58,690 nucleotides of DNA from Candidatus Acidiferrales bacterium (GCA_035517955.1 DATIYC010000066.1:1-58690); one strand, 5' to 3'. Shown: positions 47,707 through 58,690, counted from the stretch's first letter. The notes: generated by a model not told the origin, from the sequence alone. Translations and numbers: made by a program.

Positions 47707-49248
47707 ATGACAAGCGAACCGACGGCTTTTGTTAGGAAGGCTTCAGGTCTCCGAAGAGACGTTTCGTTACTGGATGTAGTTAGTCTAAACCTCAGCAACA
47801 TGTCCGGAGGAGCAGCTCTCGGAACCATCGGATTCACTACAGTGCTTCTCACGTCGATGTCTGGGGTGAACTTGGTATACGGTTCGATACTCGCATGGTT
47901 CCTAACGATTCCGGAAGTCGTTGTTTATACTATGATGACGTCTCGAGTGAGTCGGACTGGAGGAGATTACGTGTGGGTTTCGAGAGTCTATGGCGGAGCA
48001 TTCGGTGGACCCCTCTCGTTCATGGGATACACAATCGAGACTATGGCCTACATGGCACTCATCGCCTTAGCCGCGGTAACGGCAATCGGATCCGTTGGGG
48101 TGTCGCTTGGTTACTCTAACATGCTCCAGTTCGCGCTGCCCGGAAACCTTCCCGGCGCCAACTTGGCTGGCCAATTCGCTATAGCAGCCATCATTTTCGT
48201 CGTACTTATCGCTGCTAACATGCTCAAACCAAAACTGGGCTTCAAGATCGTTGCAATCGCAGTGCTGATTGCAATAGTTGCAACGTTTGTTGGAATCTTC
48301 TCTCTCCTGGCCGCCGGGACCAACGGCGTACAAGGGTACATGAGTTTCCTTAACTCGATCGGAGACAACACAACGTATACTGCAGTCGCAAACTCTTACA
48401 CCGGCCCAACGTTCGACTTTGGTGCAACTATCTTTATGCTGCCCTTCTTTGCCATCTTCGTTTATCCATGGCTAAATGCCGGCCCTGCAGTGGCCTCCGA
48501 AATCAAAGGTAAGTCCGCACTCAAGTATAACGTGGCAATCTCATCCGTCGTAAGCCTCATAATCGTAACATCGGCATTCGCGGCCATGTACTACGCCGGG
48601 GGTTTCAACTTCATCAATGGCGCATTATCCAACCCGGGCCTCGTATACGACTGGTCCTTCAACTTCTGGACCCTGGCGATGGGAGTTTCCAGCACACCTG
48701 TAGCTTGGTTCATTGGATTAGGGTGGATATTATGGAACGTCGCTGTCATTGCCTATGCGATCATCGTCCTATCTCGCTATCTCTTCGCCCAATCATTCGA
48801 CCGCTTCTTGCCGGAAAAAATCTCCTACGTCAGCAAATATGGCTCACCCACGGTAGCGTTTACGATTAACCTAGTCTGCACCTTGGTGCTAATTGCGCTC
48901 GCGTCATTCTTCTATGGAACCCTAGTGTCCCTATACGGAGCCGTCATTGCCTCAATGATTTACTTCTTCTTCATCGGAATAGCGGCCGTACGCTACGCAA
49001 TCAAGAACGAGAAAGGAACCTCAAAGGGCATCTTGGCTACGGCTGGCCTCCTAATGACGATCGTCTTCGCGTATATAACATACCAATTCATCGCATACTA
49101 TACAATCTGGGGAGGAACATTGCTTGGGACAGGATGGGCTGTTGGCAGCTTCATTGTTGGAGTTGCAATTTACTTCATCTCGAAATCGTACTACGGCAAA
49201 CGCGGAATCGATATAACTCTGGCGTACAAAGAACTACCACCCCTATAA
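47707..49248 (+). CDS. APC-superfamily permease
   Basis: 513 aa with about 12 or more hydrophobic helices. The N-terminal pattern is typical of amino acid/polyamine/organocation transporters. Confidence 0.75.
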   Translation: MTSEPTAFVRKASGLRRDVSLLDVVSLNLSNMSGGAALGTIGFTTVLLTSMSGVNLVYGSILAWFLTIPEVVVYTMMTSRVSRTGGDYVWVSRVYGGAFGGPLSFMGYTIETMAYMALIALAAVTAIGSVGVSLGYSNMLQFALPGNLPGANLAGQFAIAAIIFVVLIAANMLKPKLGFKIVAIAVLIAIVATFVGIFSLLAAGTNGVQGYMSFLNSIGDNTTYTAVANSYTGPTFDFGATIFMLPFFAIFVYPWLNAGPAVASEIKGKSALKYNVAISSVVSLIIVTSAFAAMYYAGGFNFINGALSNPGLVYDWSFNFWTLAMGVSSTPVAWFIGLGWILWNVAVIAYAIIVLSRYLFAQSFDRFLPEKISYVSKYGSPTVAFTINLVCTLVLIALASFFYGTLVSLYGAVIASMIYFFFIGIAAVRYAIKNEKGTSKGILATAGLLMTIVFAYITYQFIAYYTIWGGTLLGTGWAVGSFIVGVAIYFISKSYYGKRGIDITLAYKELPPL

Positions 49249-49396
49249 CAATCGAGCGAATACAAACTCGAAGCCCGAACACAGCCTACCGAGCTCTACT
49301 CAGAGCTCAGCCTAAACATTTGGATAGTGACTCAAGTAGACTCGCGTCGTTGGCATGTCTACACAGCTGCTGTCGCTTAGACTCCACCCACGGCGA

Positions 49397-50374
49397 CTAC
49401 CCGGAAGTGAGTTGGAAGCTGAGAATCTTCTTGTCGGCTATATTGACGATGGCTCCTCGTAGCATTCCTTCGGGGTAATCACTACCCGGATTCACTACAA
49501 GTGTCTTTCCAATTCTTGTTGTTCCTCTAGATTCGTGCACGTGACCGCAAAGGTGCAGAAGGGGTTGGTGTTTTTCGATCTCCTTGCGGATGGAAGTACT
49601 ACCGGCTCCGAACATGACTGCCTGTCCTTTATCGAAGACAGGCTTCGGAGGATAAACCGAAGCATCCAACTTTGGCACAGTATCCAGGCCACAATCAATT
49701 GGTGGAACGTGAATGTTGAAGACACAGTTCTGAACGTCGCTGACAGATGCAAGCATGTTCTCTGTGGCAGCGAGTAATTCCTCTTCCGTGTGATCTCGAG
49801 GACATTTCCAAGGCGTGGGGTTGCTCCACCCTAGGTTCACCATCTCGTGAAGCCCGTCGATCTTGAGCACCTTATTGTCAGCATTCTTGACGTGAGGCGT
49901 ATCCTTGATGTCGTCGATAATCTCCTGATAATCATCGTTCCCACCTGTTAGATAACAGGTAACACCAAGGTTGCCCAAGAAAGATTCAGCGCGATCAACC
50001 CATTTTATCAGCGAATCTTTCATAACACTCATGAAAAGCTTGTCAACTTTTTCTTTCGAGGCATTGAGCTCATCCATTTCAGTTTTCCCGCAATGATACG
50101 GGTAGTAGCCACTATTTGTGATTTCAAGCTCCAAAGCTTTGACCTCATCAGGTCCATGCAAGGTTTTGACTCCAACGTAATCCGCCTTGAAAGTGCCGTC
50201 ACCCATGTCCACTATGGGAACAAGCATCTTTCCGGTCAAGTCGCCCCCCAGAACCAACACGTCCACCTTGTAGAACTTCGCTGCACTTAGCAACTTATCA
50301 TAGCAACGCGTCGAACCGTGAAGATCGGTTGCAAAGAATATTTTCGTGAATTTCTTTTCTGGCATACCTCTCAA
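49397..50374 (-). CDS. Calcineurin-like metallophosphoesterase
   Basis: 325 aa with FFATDLHGS, LGGDLTGK, GGNDD and CGHVHES. Confidence 0.75.
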   Translation of the reverse strand: MRGMPEKKFTKIFFATDLHGSTRCYDKLLSAAKFYKVDVLVLGGDLTGKMLVPIVDMGDGTFKADYVGVKTLHGPDEVKALELEITNSGYYPYHCGKTEMDELNASKEKVDKLFMSVMKDSLIKWVDRAESFLGNLGVTCYLTGGNDDYQEIIDDIKDTPHVKNADNKVLKIDGLHEMVNLGWSNPTPWKCPRDHTEEELLAATENMLASVSDVQNCVFNIHVPPIDCGLDTVPKLDASVYPPKPVFDKGQAVMFGAGSTSIRKEIEKHQPLLHLCGHVHESRGTTRIGKTLVVNPGSDYPEGMLRGAIVNIADKKILSFQLTSG

Positions 50375-50627: not shown

Positions 50628-52424
50628 TTGTTCGAATTCGATGGTCGAAGACCACTGCACGAAATGACACGGACACTCGTAGATACTGCGATGGGACGAA
50701 GCAAGGCAGATTTGGTGGTTCAAAACGCATCGATTGTAAACGTAAACTCCGGCGAAATACTAGAGAATGTGAACATAGCCACTAAAGAAGACAGAATCGC
50801 ACTGATTGGAAACGTCAAGCACACGATTGGTCCAAACACCGAAGTGGTTGACGTGAAAGGAAAATACGTAAGCCCAGGATTCATCGACGGACACTGCCAC
50901 GTCGAGAGTGCACTCGTCACCGGAACTGGATATGCGAAAGCGGTCCTACCACATGGAACAACCACCGTATTTATCGACCCTCACGAAATCACTAACGTCC
51001 TCGGATTGGAGGGCGTAAGGTTCTTCCTTGACGAAGCACGCGCCCTTCCTCTCAAAATGCTGGTCACATTTCCTTCCTGCGTCCCCGCGGCACCCGGCTT
51101 CGAAACTAGTGGTGCTTCGATTGGGCCAAGTGAGGTTGCTGAGGCAATGAGCTGGAAGGGGATCGTAGCGCTAGGTGAAGTGATGAACTATCCCGGCGTA
51201 CTCGCCTCCGACGCTAATGTACACGGCGAGATTGCTGCCACCCTCAGGCATGGAAGGGTTGTTGAAGGACATGCAGTCGACTTATTGGATCGAGACTTGG
51301 CTGCATACGCCGCTGCTGGAATCACATCATGCCACGAATCGACAAAGGCAATTCAAGCCATGCAGAAAATCAGAGATGGAATGTATGCAATGTTGAGGGA
51401 AGCATCTGGTGCACGAAATGTTGCCGAAACAATACGAGCGATTACCATTGAGAAACTTAACCCGCGTCATGTCTGTCTGGTCACCGATGACCGTGAGCCT
51501 GGCGACCTCCTACGCGAAGGGCACATTGACCATGCCATCCGTAGAGCTATCCAGGAAGGCGTGGACCCAATCGTAGCAATACAAATGGCAACCCTGAATA
51601 CCGCGGAACATTTTGAATGTGCAAGAGAGATCGGCAGTATAGCCCCTGCCCGGTTCGCCGATATGGTTATCCTGAATAAACTTGAAACAATCGATATAGA
51701 TTCAGTCATTGCAAACGGAAGATTCGTTAGCCATCACGGCAGACTTACAAACGAAATAGCGTACCCCAAGTTCCCTGAACGGGCAAGGAATTCCGTCCAC
51801 CTCAAACACTCCCCGGCCAGTGACGATTTGATCATCAAGACGAAAACGAGAGACGGCTCGGTCAGAGCACGAGTCATCGGAGTTCTGCCTACCGAGATCT
51901 CCACACGGAATCTCGAACTTGAGGTCCCTGTGAAAAATGGACAGGCATTAGCTAATGCTAATGAAGATATTGCAAAAATAGCAGTCTTTGAGCGCCACTC
52001 AGCTACCGGTAACGTTGCTGCCGGTTTCATAAAAGGACTCGGACTCAAGCGTGGAGCTGTGGCTTCGACCGTTGGACATGACAGCCACAACCTTGTCGCA
52101 GCAGGCATGGAAGACAAAGACATTACCGCTGCTGCCAACGCACTCGCGCGTATTGGAGGAGGCATGGTAGTTGTGAAAGATCAGAGAACTATCGCAATTG
52201 TTCCTCTACCCATTGCCGGACTAATGTCGGACAAGCCCGTTGAAACAGTCTCAGCAGAGATCGACCAATTGAAGAAGGCATGGTCAGACCTGGGCTCAAC
52301 TCTTCCCTCACCGTACATGACTCTTGCCTTCACAACGCTCTCCGTGATCCCTGAACTCAGAATCACCGACAAAGGAGTGCTGGATACGGTTCAATTCAAG
52401 TTCGTGAATCCAATCATAGAGTAA
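50628..52424 (+). CDS. ade: Adenine deaminase (amidohydrolase superfamily, long form)
   Basis: 598 aa with SPGFIDGHCHVES, GHA, TDD and HDSHN motifs and the C-terminal adenine deaminase domain. Confidence 0.82.
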   Translation: MFEFDGRRPLHEMTRTLVDTAMGRSKADLVVQNASIVNVNSGEILENVNIATKEDRIALIGNVKHTIGPNTEVVDVKGKYVSPGFIDGHCHVESALVTGTGYAKAVLPHGTTTVFIDPHEITNVLGLEGVRFFLDEARALPLKMLVTFPSCVPAAPGFETSGASIGPSEVAEAMSWKGIVALGEVMNYPGVLASDANVHGEIAATLRHGRVVEGHAVDLLDRDLAAYAAAGITSCHESTKAIQAMQKIRDGMYAMLREASGARNVAETIRAITIEKLNPRHVCLVTDDREPGDLLREGHIDHAIRRAIQEGVDPIVAIQMATLNTAEHFECAREIGSIAPARFADMVILNKLETIDIDSVIANGRFVSHHGRLTNEIAYPKFPERARNSVHLKHSPASDDLIIKTKTRDGSVRARVIGVLPTEISTRNLELEVPVKNGQALANANEDIAKIAVFERHSATGNVAAGFIKGLGLKRGAVASTVGHDSHNLVAAGMEDKDITAAANALARIGGGMVVVKDQRTIAIVPLPIAGLMSDKPVETVSAEIDQLKKAWSDLGSTLPSPYMTLAFTTLSVIPELRITDKGVLDTVQFKFVNPIIE

Positions 52425-53477: not shown

Positions 53478-53631
53478 TAGTATTGCGCAGACAAGTAATC
53501 ATTGAGTTCAATCAACGAGAAGCAACGCAACCTGAAGAATGCGGTTCGTGAGAGTACCTGGTGAATGGTTAAGAGTGACGCGTTTAAGCTCCCGTAAAGC
53601 TTACCAAACTTTGCTTGTAGGAGTAGTTGCG

Positions 53632-54117
53632 GTGCGAGTAGAGCAGACTATTAGTTTCAAGCTTAACGGACAGCCCGTATCCGTGAGTTGCCCCCCTGCG
53701 TATACTCTACTCGAGGTTCTGCGAGACCAACTCCATGTCACAGGCCCTAAGGAGGATTGCGCGAAGGGAGAGTGCGGCGCGTGCACCGTGATTATGAATG
53801 GCGTTCCAGTATGTTCATGCCTCGTTCTTATTTCGCAGGCGGACGGATCTGAGGTCGTCACTTCCGAGGGGCTAGTTAAAGATGGTAAATTGAACCCAGT
53901 TCAGGAAGCGTTTCTTGAGGAGGGGGCCGTGCAGTGCGGGCACTGTATCCCCGGCATGATAGTCTCCGCTACAGCGCTTCTCATGCGAAACTCTAACCCA
54001 TCAACAGACGAAATCAGAACAGCGCTTTCAGGGAATCTTTGCAGATGTACGGGTTACACGAAGATAATCGCCGCGGTTCAGAGAGCCGCGAACAATTGGA
54101 GTCACCAGAAGCCATGA
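53632..54117 (+). CDS. Xanthine dehydrogenase/CO dehydrogenase family, [2Fe-2S] small subunit
   Basis: FKLNGQPV..., CAKGECGACTV and CGHC.PG....CRCTGY motifs. The track ORF starts at 53539, but GTG 53632 fits the usual N-terminus better. Confidence 0.88.
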   Translation: MRVEQTISFKLNGQPVSVSCPPAYTLLEVLRDQLHVTGPKEDCAKGECGACTVIMNGVPVCSCLVLISQADGSEVVTSEGLVKDGKLNPVQEAFLEEGAVQCGHCIPGMIVSATALLMRNSNPSTDEIRTALSGNLCRCTGYTKIIAAVQRAANNWSHQKP

Positions 54118-54998
54118 TGCGATACGAAATAGAAGTGATAACGCCGAGGATTCTAGCCGAGGCGTTGAACATATTGGCCAAGAATGAACCTGGAACCAGG
54201 ATTGTAGCCGGCGGCTCAGACGTTATTGTCCAATTGAGGGACGGGGTATTGCGGGCGAAAAAGCTTCTAAACATTCTACCATTGAAGGAATTGAGGTTTA
54301 TCAGAAGCGATCGTGATACCGTTCACATTGGTTCACTTGCAACGTATAGTGACATCGTGCATTCTCCGATAACTCAAGATCATGCTTGGCCCTTGGTTGA
54401 GGCGGCTAAACAAATAGGAGCAGTCCAACTCCAGAACACAGCCACGCTGGGAGGTAATTTGGGAAACGCCTCACCCGCAGGCGACAGCATACCCTCGCTG
54501 TATGCACTTGATGCAACTGTCTCGACACGAAGCCGAGATGGCACACGCAAAATTCCTATCGAGCAGTTTTTTCAAAGCTATCGAAAAATAGACCTCAAAC
54601 CTGACGAATTGATCGAGGAAGTTTACTTCAAGGGATTAGGGAACAGGGACCGAGGTTGTTACGTCAAGCTGGGCTTGCGAGATGCTAATGCAATCTCCAT
54701 CGTAGACGTTGCTGTTGTATTACGGGATGAAAGAGAGGATAAATCGTTCAAAGAAGCCAGAGTTGCTTTGGGAGCAGTGGCACCAACAATCCGACGTTCC
54801 CGAAGATGCGAAGAAACACTTGAATCGATTCCGCTGACTCCTGACCTCTTAAAGAAAGCAGCAAACTTGGTCGCTGACGATGTCTCTCCGATAGACGATA
54901 TTCGAGGATCAGCCGAATACAGGAAAGAAGTTGTAGTCTCAATCACCTACGAAGCCCTTTATCGAGCCGTTTACGCGGAGGAGGAACATCGTGGATAG
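54114..54998 (+). CDS. XDH/CODH family FAD-binding medium subunit
   Basis: VAGGSDVIVQLRDG, ATLGGNLGNASPAGD and the C-terminal IDDIRGSAEYR. The ATGA start/stop overlaps the small subunit gene. Confidence 0.85.
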   Translation: MMRYEIEVITPRILAEALNILAKNEPGTRIVAGGSDVIVQLRDGVLRAKKLLNILPLKELRFIRSDRDTVHIGSLATYSDIVHSPITQDHAWPLVEAAKQIGAVQLQNTATLGGNLGNASPAGDSIPSLYALDATVSTRSRDGTRKIPIEQFFQSYRKIDLKPDELIEEVYFKGLGNRDRGCYVKLGLRDANAISIVDVAVVLRDEREDKSFKEARVALGAVAPTIRRSRRCEETLESIPLTPDLLKKAANLVADDVSPIDDIRGSAEYRKEVVVSITYEALYRAVYAEEEHRG

Positions 54999-55230
54999 AT
55001 TCGTCCACGTCAGAGTGAAGGTTTTCGGCGCACCATCTTTCGCGCTTGAAGGCAAGGAGCTTACTGTAGAGTTGAAGGAAAACGCTACTACTGATGACCT
55101 GTTAAGAACAATTCAAGTCAAAGACCCGAGCTACCTCTACGTTGTGCGTGAAGGAATCCGACTAAACGGATCCTCCAAGCTCAATGACGGCGACGAGATA
55201 CTTGTAGTTCCGCCGATCGCGGGAGGTTAA
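54991..55230 (+). CDS. MoaD/ThiS-family ubiquitin-like protein ending in Gly-Gly
   Basis: 79 aa ending ...LNDGDEILVVPPIAGG* (MoaD consensus dGDEvaffPPvsGG). The GTG start overlaps the FAD-subunit stop. Confidence 0.75.
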   Translation: MDRFVHVRVKVFGAPSFALEGKELTVELKENATTDDLLRTIQVKDPSYLYVVREGIRLNGSSKLNDGDEILVVPPIAGG

Positions 55231-57554
55231 TTGGTACGACAGAAACACTGACAACAAAAGAATTCTCACTGAAATGGGTCGGTAAACCGATTCGACGAAA
55301 AGACGGGGAAGGCAAAGTCACCGGCCAAACGAAATTCTTCTCAGATATGAAACTGCCAAACATGCTCTACGCCAAGGTTAAACGCAGCAAATACCCGCAT
55401 GCCCTGATTAAGAGCATCGATACGAAGCGAGCAGAGACTGCTCCAGGCGTAGTTGCAGTGCTTACATACAAGGATGTTCCGGCAACCAACGGATTTGGAA
55501 TTCTCATCCCTGACCAGCCGGTACTCTGCTGGGAAAAAGTGAGGTACATGGGAGACGCGGTGGCAGTAGTTGCCGCCGAAACCCCAGAGGCGGCCGAAGA
55601 AGCTACCAACCTGGTAGAGGTCGAGTACTCACCACTTCCTGTAATATCGGAACCGCTTGAAGCCATGAAGCACGACGCTCCTAAAGTCCATGAAAAGGGC
55701 AACATTCTACGACACTCTCGAGTAACTGTAGGGAATGTGGATGAGGCATTCCGAAACGCTGCCTTCGTGGTTGAGAACACGTACAGAACGGGCCGGCAGA
55801 TGCACATGTATCTTGAAACCGAGGCGGGAGTTGGAATGCTTGACGAGAACGGAAAACTTGTTCTCTACTCGGGTGGCCAGTCACCCTACAGGGACCAGAT
55901 GCAAATTTCACGGGCACTGGGCATCAAAGCTGAGGATATTCGGGTTATCTCCACACCAGTAGGAGGTGCATTTGGAGGAAAGGAGGAGAATACCGTCCAA
56001 ATTCACCTCGCCCTCCTAGTAACGAAAACAAAACGTCCTGTAAAAATGGTTTGGAGTAGGGAGGAATCTGGCTCCGCTGGAATGAAGCGCCACCCAATGG
56101 TCGTAACTATGAAAACTGCCGCGGACCAAGAAGGACGGCTGGTGGCGAACCAAGTTCGAATTCTTGCCGACACTGGGGCATATGCATCCCTCGGTCCTAC
56201 AGTTCTGGACGTTGCGATTGAGAATTCATGTGGACCGTACCGTATTCCCAACGTAGACATCGACGCCTACTCGGTGTATACAAACAACGGGGTTGCAGGT
56301 GCTTTCCGCGGCTTCGGCTCCCCTCAAGTAAATTTCGCTTTAGAGTCGAACATAGACATTCTAGCGGAAAAACTACACATAGATAGATTGGAAATACGGA
56401 AGAAGAACGTGGTTCGTAAGGGAGACACTGGACCCCTCGGCCAGAAATTACAAGATAGCGTAGGCATTTATGAAACACTTCAGAAAGCCGAGAGTTCGGA
56501 CCTCTGGAATAATCGAGAAAAATACAAGGCACAAACCTCGGCACCATGGTGTAAACGCGGAATCGCCGTCTCGACCGCGGTCAAAGGATTCGGTTTTGGA
56601 GCTCTCCCAGACTTCGCTGCAGCCTCGATCCAGATTACCCCAACGGGAAAATTCGTGGTTGGCGTCAGCTGCCCAGAAATTGGCCAAGGCGCAATAACGG
56701 CATACGCGCAAATTGCCGCGGAAGCACTACATTGCGACATTGCAGACGTTTACATCGCCTCAGCCGATTCTGGCCTCGCACCTGACTCAGGCACCTCGTC
56801 TGCATCAATGGGATTAGTGAGAGGGGGCAACGCCATACTAACAACCGCTCCTAAAATGAATGAGCTATTGCTCGAAACAGCAAGCAAGATAATAGCAGAA
56901 CAGAAGGCCGATCTCGAATTCCAGGAATCACAAATCATTAGCAAAAGAAACCCAAAGAAGACTGTAAACTACATTGACATAGCGCAGTATCTTTACAACT
57001 CAAGTTCAGAGACCAGAATCGTTGCTGGGTACAACGTTCCTCGAGCCGACAAACCGGTGGAGGGAAGCATCGAAATTCCCCACTTGGCCTACATGTACGG
57101 CACGGCCATCGCCCTAGTGGAAGTCGATACTTTGACGGGATCAACGAAAGTGCTCAAGTTCTTTCTCTCGACAGACTCAGGCAAGATGATCAACCCTCAA
57201 TCATACACAGGCCAATGCGAGGGTGCTATAGTTCAGGGACTGGGATTCGCCTTAACTGAAGAAACACAAATCAATGAGGGCATAACCAAAACAAACAACT
57301 TCACAACATACATCATTCCAACAATCTGCGATGTCCCGGAGATTCAAATTGACCCTGTAGAAACGTACGAGAAAGTCGGTCCGTTCGGCGCCAAAGGATT
57401 AGGAGAAATAGGAATAATCCCCGTCGGATCTGCCGTAGCCAACGCAATATACGACGCCACCGGAGAAAGGGTCTTCACCCTACCTGCCACACCAGAGCGA
57501 GTATACAAGGCTATGAATGAGAGGAGAAACAGTGCCACCAAAAGTAACCGTTAG
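55230..57554 (+). CDS. XDH/aldehyde oxidoreductase family molybdopterin-binding large subunit (5' end uncertain, no canonical start)
   Basis: Family motifs are GGAFGGKE and AKGLGE. The conserved N-terminus KWVGKPIRRKDGEGKVTGQTKFFSDM is encoded at 55272-55349, upstream of the first ATG (55347). The frame is open from 55188 with no ATG/GTG/TTG, so ATT 55230 is a tentative start. Confidence 0.88.
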   Translation: MGTTETLTTKEFSLKWVGKPIRRKDGEGKVTGQTKFFSDMKLPNMLYAKVKRSKYPHALIKSIDTKRAETAPGVVAVLTYKDVPATNGFGILIPDQPVLCWEKVRYMGDAVAVVAAETPEAAEEATNLVEVEYSPLPVISEPLEAMKHDAPKVHEKGNILRHSRVTVGNVDEAFRNAAFVVENTYRTGRQMHMYLETEAGVGMLDENGKLVLYSGGQSPYRDQMQISRALGIKAEDIRVISTPVGGAFGGKEENTVQIHLALLVTKTKRPVKMVWSREESGSAGMKRHPMVVTMKTAADQEGRLVANQVRILADTGAYASLGPTVLDVAIENSCGPYRIPNVDIDAYSVYTNNGVAGAFRGFGSPQVNFALESNIDILAEKLHIDRLEIRKKNVVRKGDTGPLGQKLQDSVGIYETLQKAESSDLWNNREKYKAQTSAPWCKRGIAVSTAVKGFGFGALPDFAAASIQITPTGKFVVGVSCPEIGQGAITAYAQIAAEALHCDIADVYIASADSGLAPDSGTSSASMGLVRGGNAILTTAPKMNELLLETASKIIAEQKADLEFQESQIISKRNPKKTVNYIDIAQYLYNSSSETRIVAGYNVPRADKPVEGSIEIPHLAYMYGTAIALVEVDTLTGSTKVLKFFLSTDSGKMINPQSYTGQCEGAIVQGLGFALTEETQINEGITKTNNFTTYIIPTICDVPEIQIDPVETYEKVGPFGAKGLGEIGIIPVGSAVANAIYDATGERVFTLPATPERVYKAMNERRNSATKSNR

Positions 57555-57807
57555 ACTGTTTCATGAATTAAGAGAAAGCCTTGGCCAAAGCCAACTGGAA
57601 GTCGAGGCTGACACACTTGGAGACGTCGTAGCTTCCCTTATTTCGAAAAAAGATTCAGTAAGAGACTTAATCTTTGATTCCCGTGGTAAAATTCGGACGT
57701 ATACGACGGTTTACATCAATAACGCAGCTCAAACTCCCCCTGAATTCTCGAGGAAACTAAATGACGGAGACATAATCCTACTTGTTCCTACTGCCGCGGG
57801 CGGATGA
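57532..57807 (+). CDS. Second MoaD/ThiS-family ubiquitin-like protein ending in Gly-Gly
   Basis: It ends ...LNDGDIILLVPTAAGG*. It overlaps the large-subunit 3' end. GTG 57532 or ATG 57517 could be the start. Confidence 0.7.
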   Translation: MPPKVTVRLFHELRESLGQSQLEVEADTLGDVVASLISKKDSVRDLIFDSRGKIRTYTTVYINNAAQTPPEFSRKLNDGDIILLVPTAAGG

Positions 57808-57829
57808 AAAATAGTTGCGACGATTTGAC

Positions 57830-58690
57830 ATGTACGTCCCAATGAATCAGATGGACCTTCTCCATTACATCAACGAACACCAGACCGGCGTACAACTAAT
57901 AGCGAACGGAAGCGACCTCATCAACCGGATCCAGCGTCGGCAAGTGAATCCGAAAGTGCTTGTCGACCTGACTGGGCTTACGGAATTGAGTTATGTCGAG
58001 AAGGAAAATGGTACCTTCAAAATAGGAGCAATGACAACAATAGCTGAACTTATAGCATCACCACTCTTTGACTCAAAATACGAAGCCATAAGAGAAGTGG
58101 CAAGAAAGTTTGGTGGCCCATCCATTGTCAATGTTGCAACGGTTGGAGGAAACGTGTGCTCTGCGTCTTCCTCAGAAGATCTGTTACCGTTGCTGTTAGT
58201 GCTTGACGCACAGGTTCGAACCCGGAGCGTAAAGGGAGACCGCGTAGTGCGGCTAGAGGATTTTCTCAAAGGAAAACGCATGGTTGACTTAAGCCCTAAC
58301 GAAATAATGGTAGAGGCAACGTTCTCAGATATTGATCAGAATGCTAGGTGCGCCTTTGAGAAGGTCGGCATGAGAAACTCTCTCATAACGGCTTTCGTCA
58401 ACTGCGCGATTTATTTGAAACTTGCAACGAAAACAAATCGAATCGAGGACATTCGAATAGCATTCAACCGAGTCAACGGTAAGATCCCGGCCCGCGCTAA
58501 GAATACGGAAGAAAAGATGCGAGATAAGCCACTTGATCATAAGCGCCTGACAATGTCGATCGACGCGTTAAGAAACGAACTTCGGCTCACGTCGGACTTT
58601 AGAGCCTCACAAGAATACAGGATGGAGGTTGCATGTGCACTATTCAAGAGAACGCTTACCAGGTGCGTAGATGGGTTGACTGGAGAGAAG
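57830..58690 (+). CDS. Second XDH/CODH-family FAD-binding subunit, 3'-truncated by the window end (absent from the ORF track)
   Basis: From ATG 57830 the frame is open for 287 codons to the last base. Motifs are IANGSDLINRIQ, ATVGGNVCSASSSEDL and SDFRASQEYR. Confidence 0.75.
   Translation, partial: MYVPMNQMDLLHYINEHQTGVQLIANGSDLINRIQRRQVNPKVLVDLTGLTELSYVEKENGTFKIGAMTTIAELIASPLFDSKYEAIREVARKFGGPSIVNVATVGGNVCSASSSEDLLPLLLVLDAQVRTRSVKGDRVVRLEDFLKGKRMVDLSPNEIMVEATFSDIDQNARCAFEKVGMRNSLITAFVNCAIYLKLATKTNRIEDIRIAFNRVNGKIPARAKNTEEKMRDKPLDHKRLTMSIDALRNELRLTSDFRASQEYRMEVACALFKRTLTRCVDGLTGEK

Follow-up and report, generated by a model that had tools for sequence, protein, structure and literature searches.

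Two Gly-Gly-terminated MoaD/SAMP-like proteins encoded inside a tandem molybdenum hydroxylase operon of Bathyarchaeia, and their possible role in cofactor maturation

The DNA stretch DATIYC010000066.1 (GCA_035517955.1), 58,690 nucleotides long and referred to here as the window, carries a run of genes for enzymes of the xanthine dehydrogenase (XDH) family, in which genes for two small ubiquitin-like proteins (Ubls) of the MoaD/ThiS family are embedded. The window is the entire contig C66 of a metagenome-assembled genome of Bathyarchaeia (219 contigs, 95% complete), and it ends inside the last gene of the run. Genes were assigned by applying Pfam profiles to the open reading frames (ORFs) of the window, with a gathering score of 22.5 bits for PF02597, the MoaD/ThiS profile. 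A preliminary description of the window had placed two MoaD/ThiS-like ORFs with Gly-Gly ends among XDH-family subunit genes. Both ORFs are present at those positions and score above the PF02597 cut-off, and the flanking genes matched Fer2 and Fer2_2, FAD_binding_5 and CO_deh_flav_C, and Ald_Xan_dh_C with MoCoBD_1 and MoCoBD_2. The genes of the operon in the window are as follows.

53539..54117, plus strand: FeS1, [2Fe-2S] small subunit of enzyme 1 (Pfam Fer2_2, 3.9e-31, and Fer2)
54114..54998, plus strand: FAD1, FAD-binding medium subunit of enzyme 1 (FAD_binding_5, 2.2e-43; CO_deh_flav_C, 6.8e-22)
54991..55230, plus strand: Ubl1, MoaD/ThiS family, 79 amino acids, GTG start (PF02597, 32.2 bits)
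55248..57554, plus strand: Mo1, molybdopterin large subunit of enzyme 1, probable CTG start (Ald_Xan_dh_C, MoCoBD_1, MoCoBD_2)
57532..57807, plus strand: Ubl2, MoaD/SAMP1-like, 91 amino acids, GTG start (PF02597, 29.0 bits)
57815..58690, plus strand, open at the contig end: FAD2, FAD-binding subunit of enzyme 2 (FAD_binding_5, 1e-39)

These genes are closely packed. The stop codon of FeS1 and the start codon of FAD1 have the sequence ATGA in common, FAD1 overlaps Ubl1 by 8 nucleotides, Mo1 overlaps Ubl2 by 23 nucleotides, and Ubl2 is separated from FAD2 by a gap of 7 nucleotides. No terminator-like sites were found on the plus strand within the operon. The earlier statement that all junctions overlap or nearly touch needs correction: between Ubl1 and Mo1, no ATG, GTG or TTG precedes the conserved N-terminus of Mo1. 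The Ubl2 ORF is listed from ATG 57517 (96 amino acids), and its start was moved to GTG 57532, which yields 91 amino acids, because the orthologues begin with M-x-x-KVKVRLFHEL. The orthologues of FeS1 likewise begin near residue 32 of the window ORF.

The operon continues beyond the window. In all six of the longer loci of relatives, the complete unit consists of eight genes in the order FeS1-FAD1-Ubl1-Mo1-Ubl2-FAD2-FeS2-Mo2, and in the genome examined here the remainder lies on contig C81, which carries the last 48 amino acids of FAD2, FeS2 (146-625) and Mo2 (627-2951). The operon codes for two distinct molybdenum hydroxylases of the xanthine-oxidase family, each made up of three subunits; their large subunits, Mo1 and Mo2, share only about 38% identity. 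The preliminary picture of two Ubls bracketing a single Mo subunit is therefore not established, because the unit carries two complete enzyme sets in relatives and with C81; that appearance resulted from the break of the contig inside FAD2. A single-enzyme-set operon with one Ubl was found in none of about 200 Bathyarchaeia genomes. The best NCBIfam match of Mo1 is pucD (605 bits against a cut-off of 783.65), and Se_dep_XDH reaches 523 bits against 830. Mo1 contains the motifs GGAFGGKE, FRGFG and GLGE; in Mo2, GPKS replaces GGKE and the other two motifs are kept. These three motifs are taken here to be residues of the xanthine-oxidase active site, and the difference between GPKS and GGKE indicates that enzymes 1 and 2 probably differ in substrate. 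A glutamate is retained by all five Mo subunits of the genome at the position compared, which is presumably the catalytic Glu of the family. Xanthine-oxidase-family enzymes of this type use a sulfurated cofactor, and, judged by their sequences, enzymes 1 and 2 look like standard hydroxylases with this requirement.

A gene for XdhC (domains XdhC_CoxI and XdhC_C) directly follows Mo2 as the ninth gene in five of the six longer loci. In the sixth, and in G170, which belongs to the same genus, XdhC is found a few kilobases away on the opposite strand. In most relatives XdhC stands between Mo2 and genes for Band7/NfeD proteins (for example, L021:12730-13545), and G017 adds a BlaI/BlaR-like pair. 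In the genome examined here, Band7/NfeD genes and not XdhC follow Mo2 (C81:2951-4101). It had been pointed out that MoaE, an E1 enzyme and XdhC are missing from the window. This is true of the window, but the argument built on their absence fails, because the window stops at the contig end. The idea that the Ubls replace XdhC was rejected, since XdhC follows Mo2 in most orthologous operons; the arrangement in five of six longer loci instead means that the Ubls add to XdhC. Neither Ubl matched the XdhC domains PF02625 and PF13478.

The small genes are conserved beside the XDH-family genes of relatives. Ubl1 has 137 homologues at 60-87% identity, and those that are named are MoaD/ThiS proteins of Bathyarchaeia. 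Within its own genus, the Ubl1 gene occurs in 19 of 22 genomes, and those that lack it are 67-89% complete; a further genus of this Bathyarchaeia family, g5, has it as well. A synteny scan with one genome per GTDB species gave an identical gene order in each of the 18 loci that have a genuine orthologue of Ubl1, and the loci examined in genus g5 show this order throughout the reach of their contigs. In a 200-genome sample of the class, orthologues of Ubl2 occurred only in the two genera and always in the arrangement Mo1-Ubl2-FAD2; beyond these orthologues, the nearest relatives of Ubl2 are MoaD genes linked to E1 genes or to genes for tungsten-type aldehyde ferredoxin oxidoreductase (AOR). In the genomes searched, the eight-gene order was confined to two genera of a single Bathyarchaeia family. 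The Gly-Gly ends and the fixed gene order are not due to chance.

Mean p-distances are 0.33 for Ubl1, 0.39 for Ubl2, 0.38 for FAD1, 0.39 for FAD2, 0.27 for Mo1 and 0.20 for FeS1, the identity of FeS1 being 75-87% across the 18 loci. The Ubls are under purifying selection, and their rate of change is close to that of the FAD subunits. Rate covariation did not single out either enzyme as the partner of Ubl2, as the raw correlations were all between 0.86 and 0.98 and the residuals were near zero or negative. Remote C-terminal matches of Ubl1 in Acidobacteriaceae and other groups had no XDH gene within 6 kb, and a tblastn search of Ubl2 against plasmids returned a single match, an unrelated MoaD. 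Two of the 18 contigs are labelled Methylomirabilota (L039, DATKOK010000059.1) and Acidoferrum (L040, DASQZS010000108.1). Both have identical synteny at 64-65% identity, with operon proteins at 60-78% identity, and for this reason they are probably mis-binned Bathyarchaeia contigs.

Structures of the two proteins were predicted with AlphaFold, each modelled with an alignment of its own orthologues, and structural neighbours were retrieved with Foldseek. Both models have the beta-grasp topology, with a mean predicted local distance difference test score of 81.9 for Ubl1 and 88.2 for Ubl2. The two outcomes named in the preliminary description as refuting it, small ORFs not retained next to XDH genes in relatives and a missing beta-grasp fold, were both checked, and neither occurred. 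The best matches of Ubl1 are the mycobacterial MoaD 6jbz_B, the small archaeal modifier protein SAMP3 (2m19), ubiquitin and SAMP1. Those of Ubl2 are SAMP1 (3po0, 2l52 and 4hro; template modelling score about 0.8), SAMP3, CysO (3dwg) and MoaD. The models matched MoaD, SAMP1, SAMP3, CysO, Urm1 and ubiquitin with a Foldseek probability of 1.00. Both Ubls belong to the MoaD/SAMP branch of the ThiS/MoaD superfamily, and neither reaches the cut-off of any equivalog model. They share 31-38% identity and form separate orthologous groups, each conserved; they are lineage-specific extra MoaD/SAMP paralogues, distinct from the other MoaD-like genes of the cell.

The C-terminal tail is the most conserved segment of both proteins and has the general form PPxAGG. 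Ubl1 of the window ends in VVPPIAGG and Ubl2 in LVPTAAGG. The terminal IAGG is present in 116 of 120 Ubl1 homologues (120 of the 137 at 60-87% identity), and the orthologues of Ubl2 end in Gly-Gly in 14 of 18 cases, have two extra residues in three and are frameshifted in one. All of 29 Ubl1 sequences have P74, P75, G78 and G79, and at least 90% of them have I76 and A77. In Ubl2, P86 and G90 never vary, and at least 90% of the sequences keep A88 and G91. Tails of one to three residues past the Gly-Gly occur sporadically (GGR, GGRA, GGRC, GGHC, GGHR, GGKR and GGCI). The constraint fits a tail that is adenylated by an E1 enzyme and enters an active site.

The junction between Ubl1 and Mo1 is unusual. 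The conserved N-terminus of Mo1 (FSLKWVGKPIRRKDGEGKVTGQTKFFSD) precedes the first ATG (55347), and there is no in-frame ATG, GTG or TTG after the Ubl1 stop codon (55230). CTG 55248 occupies the position of the ATG of the orthologues. In 15 orthologues an ATG, GTG or TTG lies 0-17 nucleotides past the Ubl1 stop, and one relative (L029/G020) has ATA. An assembly error was considered and rejected, since two separately built public contigs (about 15x) show zero differences at this junction, with the limit that both may derive from the source samples. The sequence suggests that Mo1 initiates at a near-cognate codon and may rely on ribosomes arriving directly from the end of Ubl1.

Ubl1 and Mo1 share one reading frame in genus g5. 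A single stop codon separates them in G034, G036 and G170, where the junctions read PPVTGGRC-stop-EMSTLRWVGK, GGRA-stop-QM and GGR-stop-WKIAG. Two other species of this genus have an in-frame Ubl1-Mo1 fusion with no stop codon, in which a three-residue linker, E(G/R)D, precedes LRWVGK. The fusion of L044 (L044:6031-6600) reads DGDELLVFPPVAGG-EGD-LRWVGKSVTKRD, and that of G026 (L132; G026:C165, minus strand, about 1-950) reads PPVAGG-ERD-LRWVGKSVTKRD. One fusion lies on a 346-kb contig and the other on a 3.7-kb contig, so that an assembly artefact is not the cause. A search of a large protein database with the window Ubl1 as query found no fused forms; this search relies on shared words and is weak. 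As read from the sequence, the fusion physically links Ubl1 to Mo1 in the manner of a "Rosetta stone" protein.

Further components of cofactor and Ubl metabolism are encoded elsewhere in the genome. The window contains no genes for molybdenum cofactor biosynthesis, and the search for MoaE and E1 genes recommended in the preliminary description located one MoaE and two E1s outside it. One E1 (C90) adjoins a ThiI-like gene, and the other (C27) belongs to an operon with ubiquitin, E2 and JAB genes. Three JAB proteins, three XdhC genes on other contigs, a cysteine desulfurase (529 bits) and rhodaneses are present. No MoaE gene lies within 6 kb of the Ubls in any of the 18 orthologous loci, and MoaE, MoaA, MoaC and MoeA are absent beside the Ubl operon in every locus examined. 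Other MoaD genes of Bathyarchaeia do adjoin MoaE. The idea that a Ubl carries selenium for a selenium-dependent hydroxylase was dropped, as the genome contains no SelD match above the cut-off.

Eight ThiS-family matches were found in the genome, including Ubl1 and Ubl2. A MoaD-like copy is directly upstream of a tungsten-type AOR gene (C131:18017-18304), and another ThiS-family copy (C154:15461-15739) adjoins FAD3-FeS3 of a third XDH-family set. The latter was considered as a third XDH-linked Ubl and rejected, since its adjacency is not conserved in other genomes; it is probably a housekeeping-type MoaD, because its orthologues sit beside MoaE or AOR. Further copies are found on C34 and, in three odd forms, on C170, C174 and C192.

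Taken as E1-activated sulfur carriers dedicated to cofactor maturation of the enzymes of the operon, the Ubls would be explained by a reading to which we give about an even chance of being correct. Translational coupling would ensure that each Ubl is synthesised along with the enzyme subunits. An E1 enzyme of the MoeB/UbaA type would adenylate it at the C-terminal Gly-Gly, the adenylated Ubl would be converted to a thiocarboxylate, and the sulfur would then pass to maturation of the molybdenum cofactor of the cognate enzyme. The sulfur may enter the dithiolene through the single MoaE, or it may form the terminal Mo=S ligand, with the Ubl acting on the Mo subunit or on cofactor bound to XdhC. 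The Mo=S ligand is judged the somewhat more likely target because of the Ubl1-Mo1 fusions, and the co-occurring XdhC could hold the cofactor during sulfuration. We infer activation, thiocarboxylation, the destination of the sulfur and the partner enzyme of Ubl2. The exact Gly-Gly terminus, the MoaD-type tail, the availability of an E1 and the biology of the family together indicate activation and thiocarboxylation. The presence of two distinct Ubls, their coupled synthesis and the fusion of Ubl1 to Mo1 rather than to MoaE argue for a direct, enzyme-specific interaction over generic molybdopterin supply. By analogy with MoaD-MoaE fusions, the Mo subunit is suggested to be the site where Ubl1 acts.

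Several results weigh against these dedicated sulfur carriers. The archaeal MoaD model TIGR01687 gives 27.8 bits for Ubl1 and 46.3 bits for Ubl2, below its cut-off of 49.5; the MoaD equivalog TIGR01682 gives 21.2 bits for Ubl1 against 66.15; and the SAMP1 model NF041918 gives 23.4 and 45.7 bits, respectively, against 60. The only MoaE gene of the genome, on contig C168, is unlinked to the Ubls. With a cysteine desulfurase and XdhC, the classical sulfuration route is available and there is no need for a Ubl route. Two distinct Ubls are hard to explain as generic sulfur donors only. In the fusions the Gly-Gly is internal, and the carrier model would require cleavage; moreover, the G026 fusion lacks about 13 residues of the Ubl domain, which would be compatible with decay or with a purely structural role.

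In a more specific form of the sulfur-carrier reading, the Ubls would be enzyme-specific thiocarboxylate donors, the Gly-Gly-COSH tail of which enters the Mo subunit or XdhC-bound cofactor and installs or reinstalls the Mo=S ligand, by a route apart from cysteine desulfurase/XdhC and ABA3/MOCOS. In some species the Ubl would then be a cleavable N-terminal pro-domain of the enzyme. This form is considered unlikely.

Three other explanations were weighed against the dedicated carriers. The Ubls may be non-covalent structural or assembly adaptors of the beta-grasp type, which dock on the Mo subunit or a neighbouring one as a stabiliser, chaperone or partner-binding element and take no part in sulfur chemistry. 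This possibility is a doubtful one. Ubl1 can work when tethered to the N-terminus of Mo1, as the in-frame fusions of two species show, the placement between subunit genes with translational coupling is as for stoichiometric subunits, and two distinct Ubls suit partner-specific docking. A precedent exists in TmoB, a ThiS/MoaD-like subunit of an oxidoreductase complex (PMC1779556, Table 1). However, a passive domain needs no flexible PPxAGG tail that is the most conserved part of the protein and is followed exactly by the stop codon (116/120 Ubl1, 14/18 Ubl2), and the large protein database, in its weak search, gave no fused forms. We also know of no solved xanthine-oxidase-family enzyme with a Ubl-like subunit, which again speaks against a structural role.

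It is quite unlikely that the Ubls are modifiers of the SAMP type, linked by isopeptide bonds after E1 activation to lysines of XDH subunits or of cofactor-synthesis proteins and thereby regulating activity, assembly or turnover. Such a function would agree with the 45.7 bits of Ubl2 on the SAMP1 model, the structural proximity of Ubl2 to SAMP1 and SAMP3, the presence of E1 and JAB genes in the genome, and the finding that the three Ubls of Thermococcus kodakarensis carry sulfur and form conjugates (PMC11323500). Yet both Ubls are below the 60-bit cut-off for SAMP1, no target lysine is indicated, a regulator needs no one-for-one synthesis inside a structural operon, and C27 already encodes a separate full ubiquitin-type system. 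Still less probable, and in our view very unlikely, is that Ubl1 and Ubl2 are ordinary MoaD copies that only serve, via the single MoaE, to make more molybdopterin available locally upon induction, with no enzyme-specific interaction. Two MoaD-SH are consumed per molybdopterin, and demand therefore grows on induction. The family and tail motif are those of MoaD, and AOR-linked MoaD genes have been interpreted in this way (PMC1779556). For supply, however, a single copy would be enough, and the two proteins are only 31-38% identical and separately conserved. The fusion partner is Mo1 and not MoaE, which points to the enzyme, and no MoaE, MoaA, MoaC or MoeA gene accompanies the operon in any locus examined.

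The Ubl operon is apparently undescribed and represents a variant of the known theme of a dedicated MoaD next to a pterin enzyme. Full-text literature searches brought up no description of XDH-family operons with embedded MoaD-like genes, and the word "xanthine" is absent from PMC1779556 and from the archaeal Ubl survey PMC2948915. A strict linkage of MoaD genes to tungsten AOR genes has been described, and Azoarcus even has an AOR-MoaD fusion (Iyer, Burroughs and Aravind 2006, PMC1779556); one AOR-linked MoaD of this kind is TK1065/UblC of T. kodakarensis (PMC11323500). As in these systems, an extra Gly-Gly MoaD-family gene adjoins the gene of a pterin-cofactor enzyme outside the general cofactor operon, and a fusion to the enzyme exists. 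In contrast, the partner in all loci described here is an FeS/FAD/Mo hydroxylase of the xanthine-oxidase family and never an AOR, two different Ubls are encoded per operon, and MoeB, MoaE or radical-SAM genes are not found alongside. Unlike the C-terminal fusion in Azoarcus, Ubl1 is N-terminal to the enzyme and its Gly-Gly is internal.

The Ubls resemble MoaD (MoaD2-MoaE2) and MoaX in the beta-grasp fold, in a tail of the form DGD...PPxxGG and in probable activation by an E1. MoaX, the fused MoaD-MoaE of M. tuberculosis, must be cut after the Gly-Gly to work (PMC4326299), and, as in MoaX, the carrier is N-terminal to its partner in some species and the Gly-Gly is kept at the junction. The Ubls differ from both in scoring below the MoaD cut-offs, in the lack of linkage to MoaE and in a fusion partner that is a hydroxylase large subunit. 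The archaeal Gly-Gly Ubls SAMP1 and SAMP3 from Haloferax volcanii serve as sulfur carriers for the molybdenum cofactor and as protein modifiers, and their structures are the closest solved ones to Ubl2; unlike them, Ubl1 and Ubl2 score below the SAMP1 cut-off and are embedded in an enzyme operon. The chaperones XdhC and PaoD are likewise accessory proteins co-encoded with xanthine-oxidase-family enzymes and assumed to be required for the cofactor to be sulfurated and active, but they are unrelated in fold and family, and in most orthologous operons XdhC occurs alongside the Ubls. Toluene-4-monooxygenase, a multi-component oxidoreductase of a different enzyme class, also has a small beta-grasp protein of the ThiS/MoaD type, TmoB, whose gene lies among those of the subunits; to our knowledge, TmoB has no conserved Gly-Gly terminus. 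The short residues past the Gly-Gly in some Ubls recall QbsE, and the genome examined here has three JAB genes. For QbsE, trimming of the tail has been attributed, with probability, to the JAMM protease QbsD (PMC5925218).

The operon sits in a purine-breakdown island. An adenine deaminase gene is located upstream of it, as in five of six longer orthologous loci, and the window also encodes an amidohydrolase, a pyridoxal phosphate enzyme and a permease.

50628..52424, plus strand: adenine deaminase (TIGR01178, 552 bits against a cut-off of 472.5)

A gene pair for an AA_permease_2 transporter and a calcineurin-like metallophosphoesterase, found at 47707-50374 of the window and again at C154:15866-18757, flanks both the XDH operon and the third XDH-family set; these twin flanks hint at a common uptake or processing module. 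The genome encodes five large subunits of the xanthine-oxidase family (Mo1, Mo2, two on C154 and one on C132) and at least three AOR-type genes, a large complement of molybdo- and tungsto-enzymes for a 2.6-Mb archaeon. The ThiS-family copy on C170 (C170:11351-11764; L136:2352-2765) is a protein of 137 amino acids with a twin-arginine-like N-terminus (MTSRRNFLRLAG) and a C-terminal ThiS domain ending in LTAGG. It directly follows a multicopper-oxidase/cupredoxin protein, which is an unusual setting for a beta-grasp protein with a Gly-Gly end. The operon on C27 (C27:7027-10720; L135:5028-8721, minus strand) encodes a JAB/MPN protein of 514 amino acids, a ubiquitin-family protein of 90 amino acids ending in IIGGSC, an E2-like protein (UQ_con) and an E1 that carries a ubiquitin domain at its N-terminus, and is reminiscent of the archaeal ubiquitin system solved from Caldiarchaeum.

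The acquisition and retention of the labile sulfido ligand by prokaryotic xanthine-oxidase-family enzymes are understood only for a few XdhC- and PaoD-dependent bacteria and not for archaea. As far as can be judged from the genes, the operon probably marks a further step in making both hydroxylases active, and the conserved pair of embedded Ubls, together with the fusion to the catalytic subunit, is a concrete candidate for a new maturation step. This would extend the theme of dedicated MoaD proteins from tungsten AORs to molybdenum hydroxylases. In heterologous expression of these archaeal purine hydroxylases, co-expression of the Ubls is advisable. The operon is also relevant to the anaerobic degradation of purines by Bathyarchaeia of wetland and peat soils.

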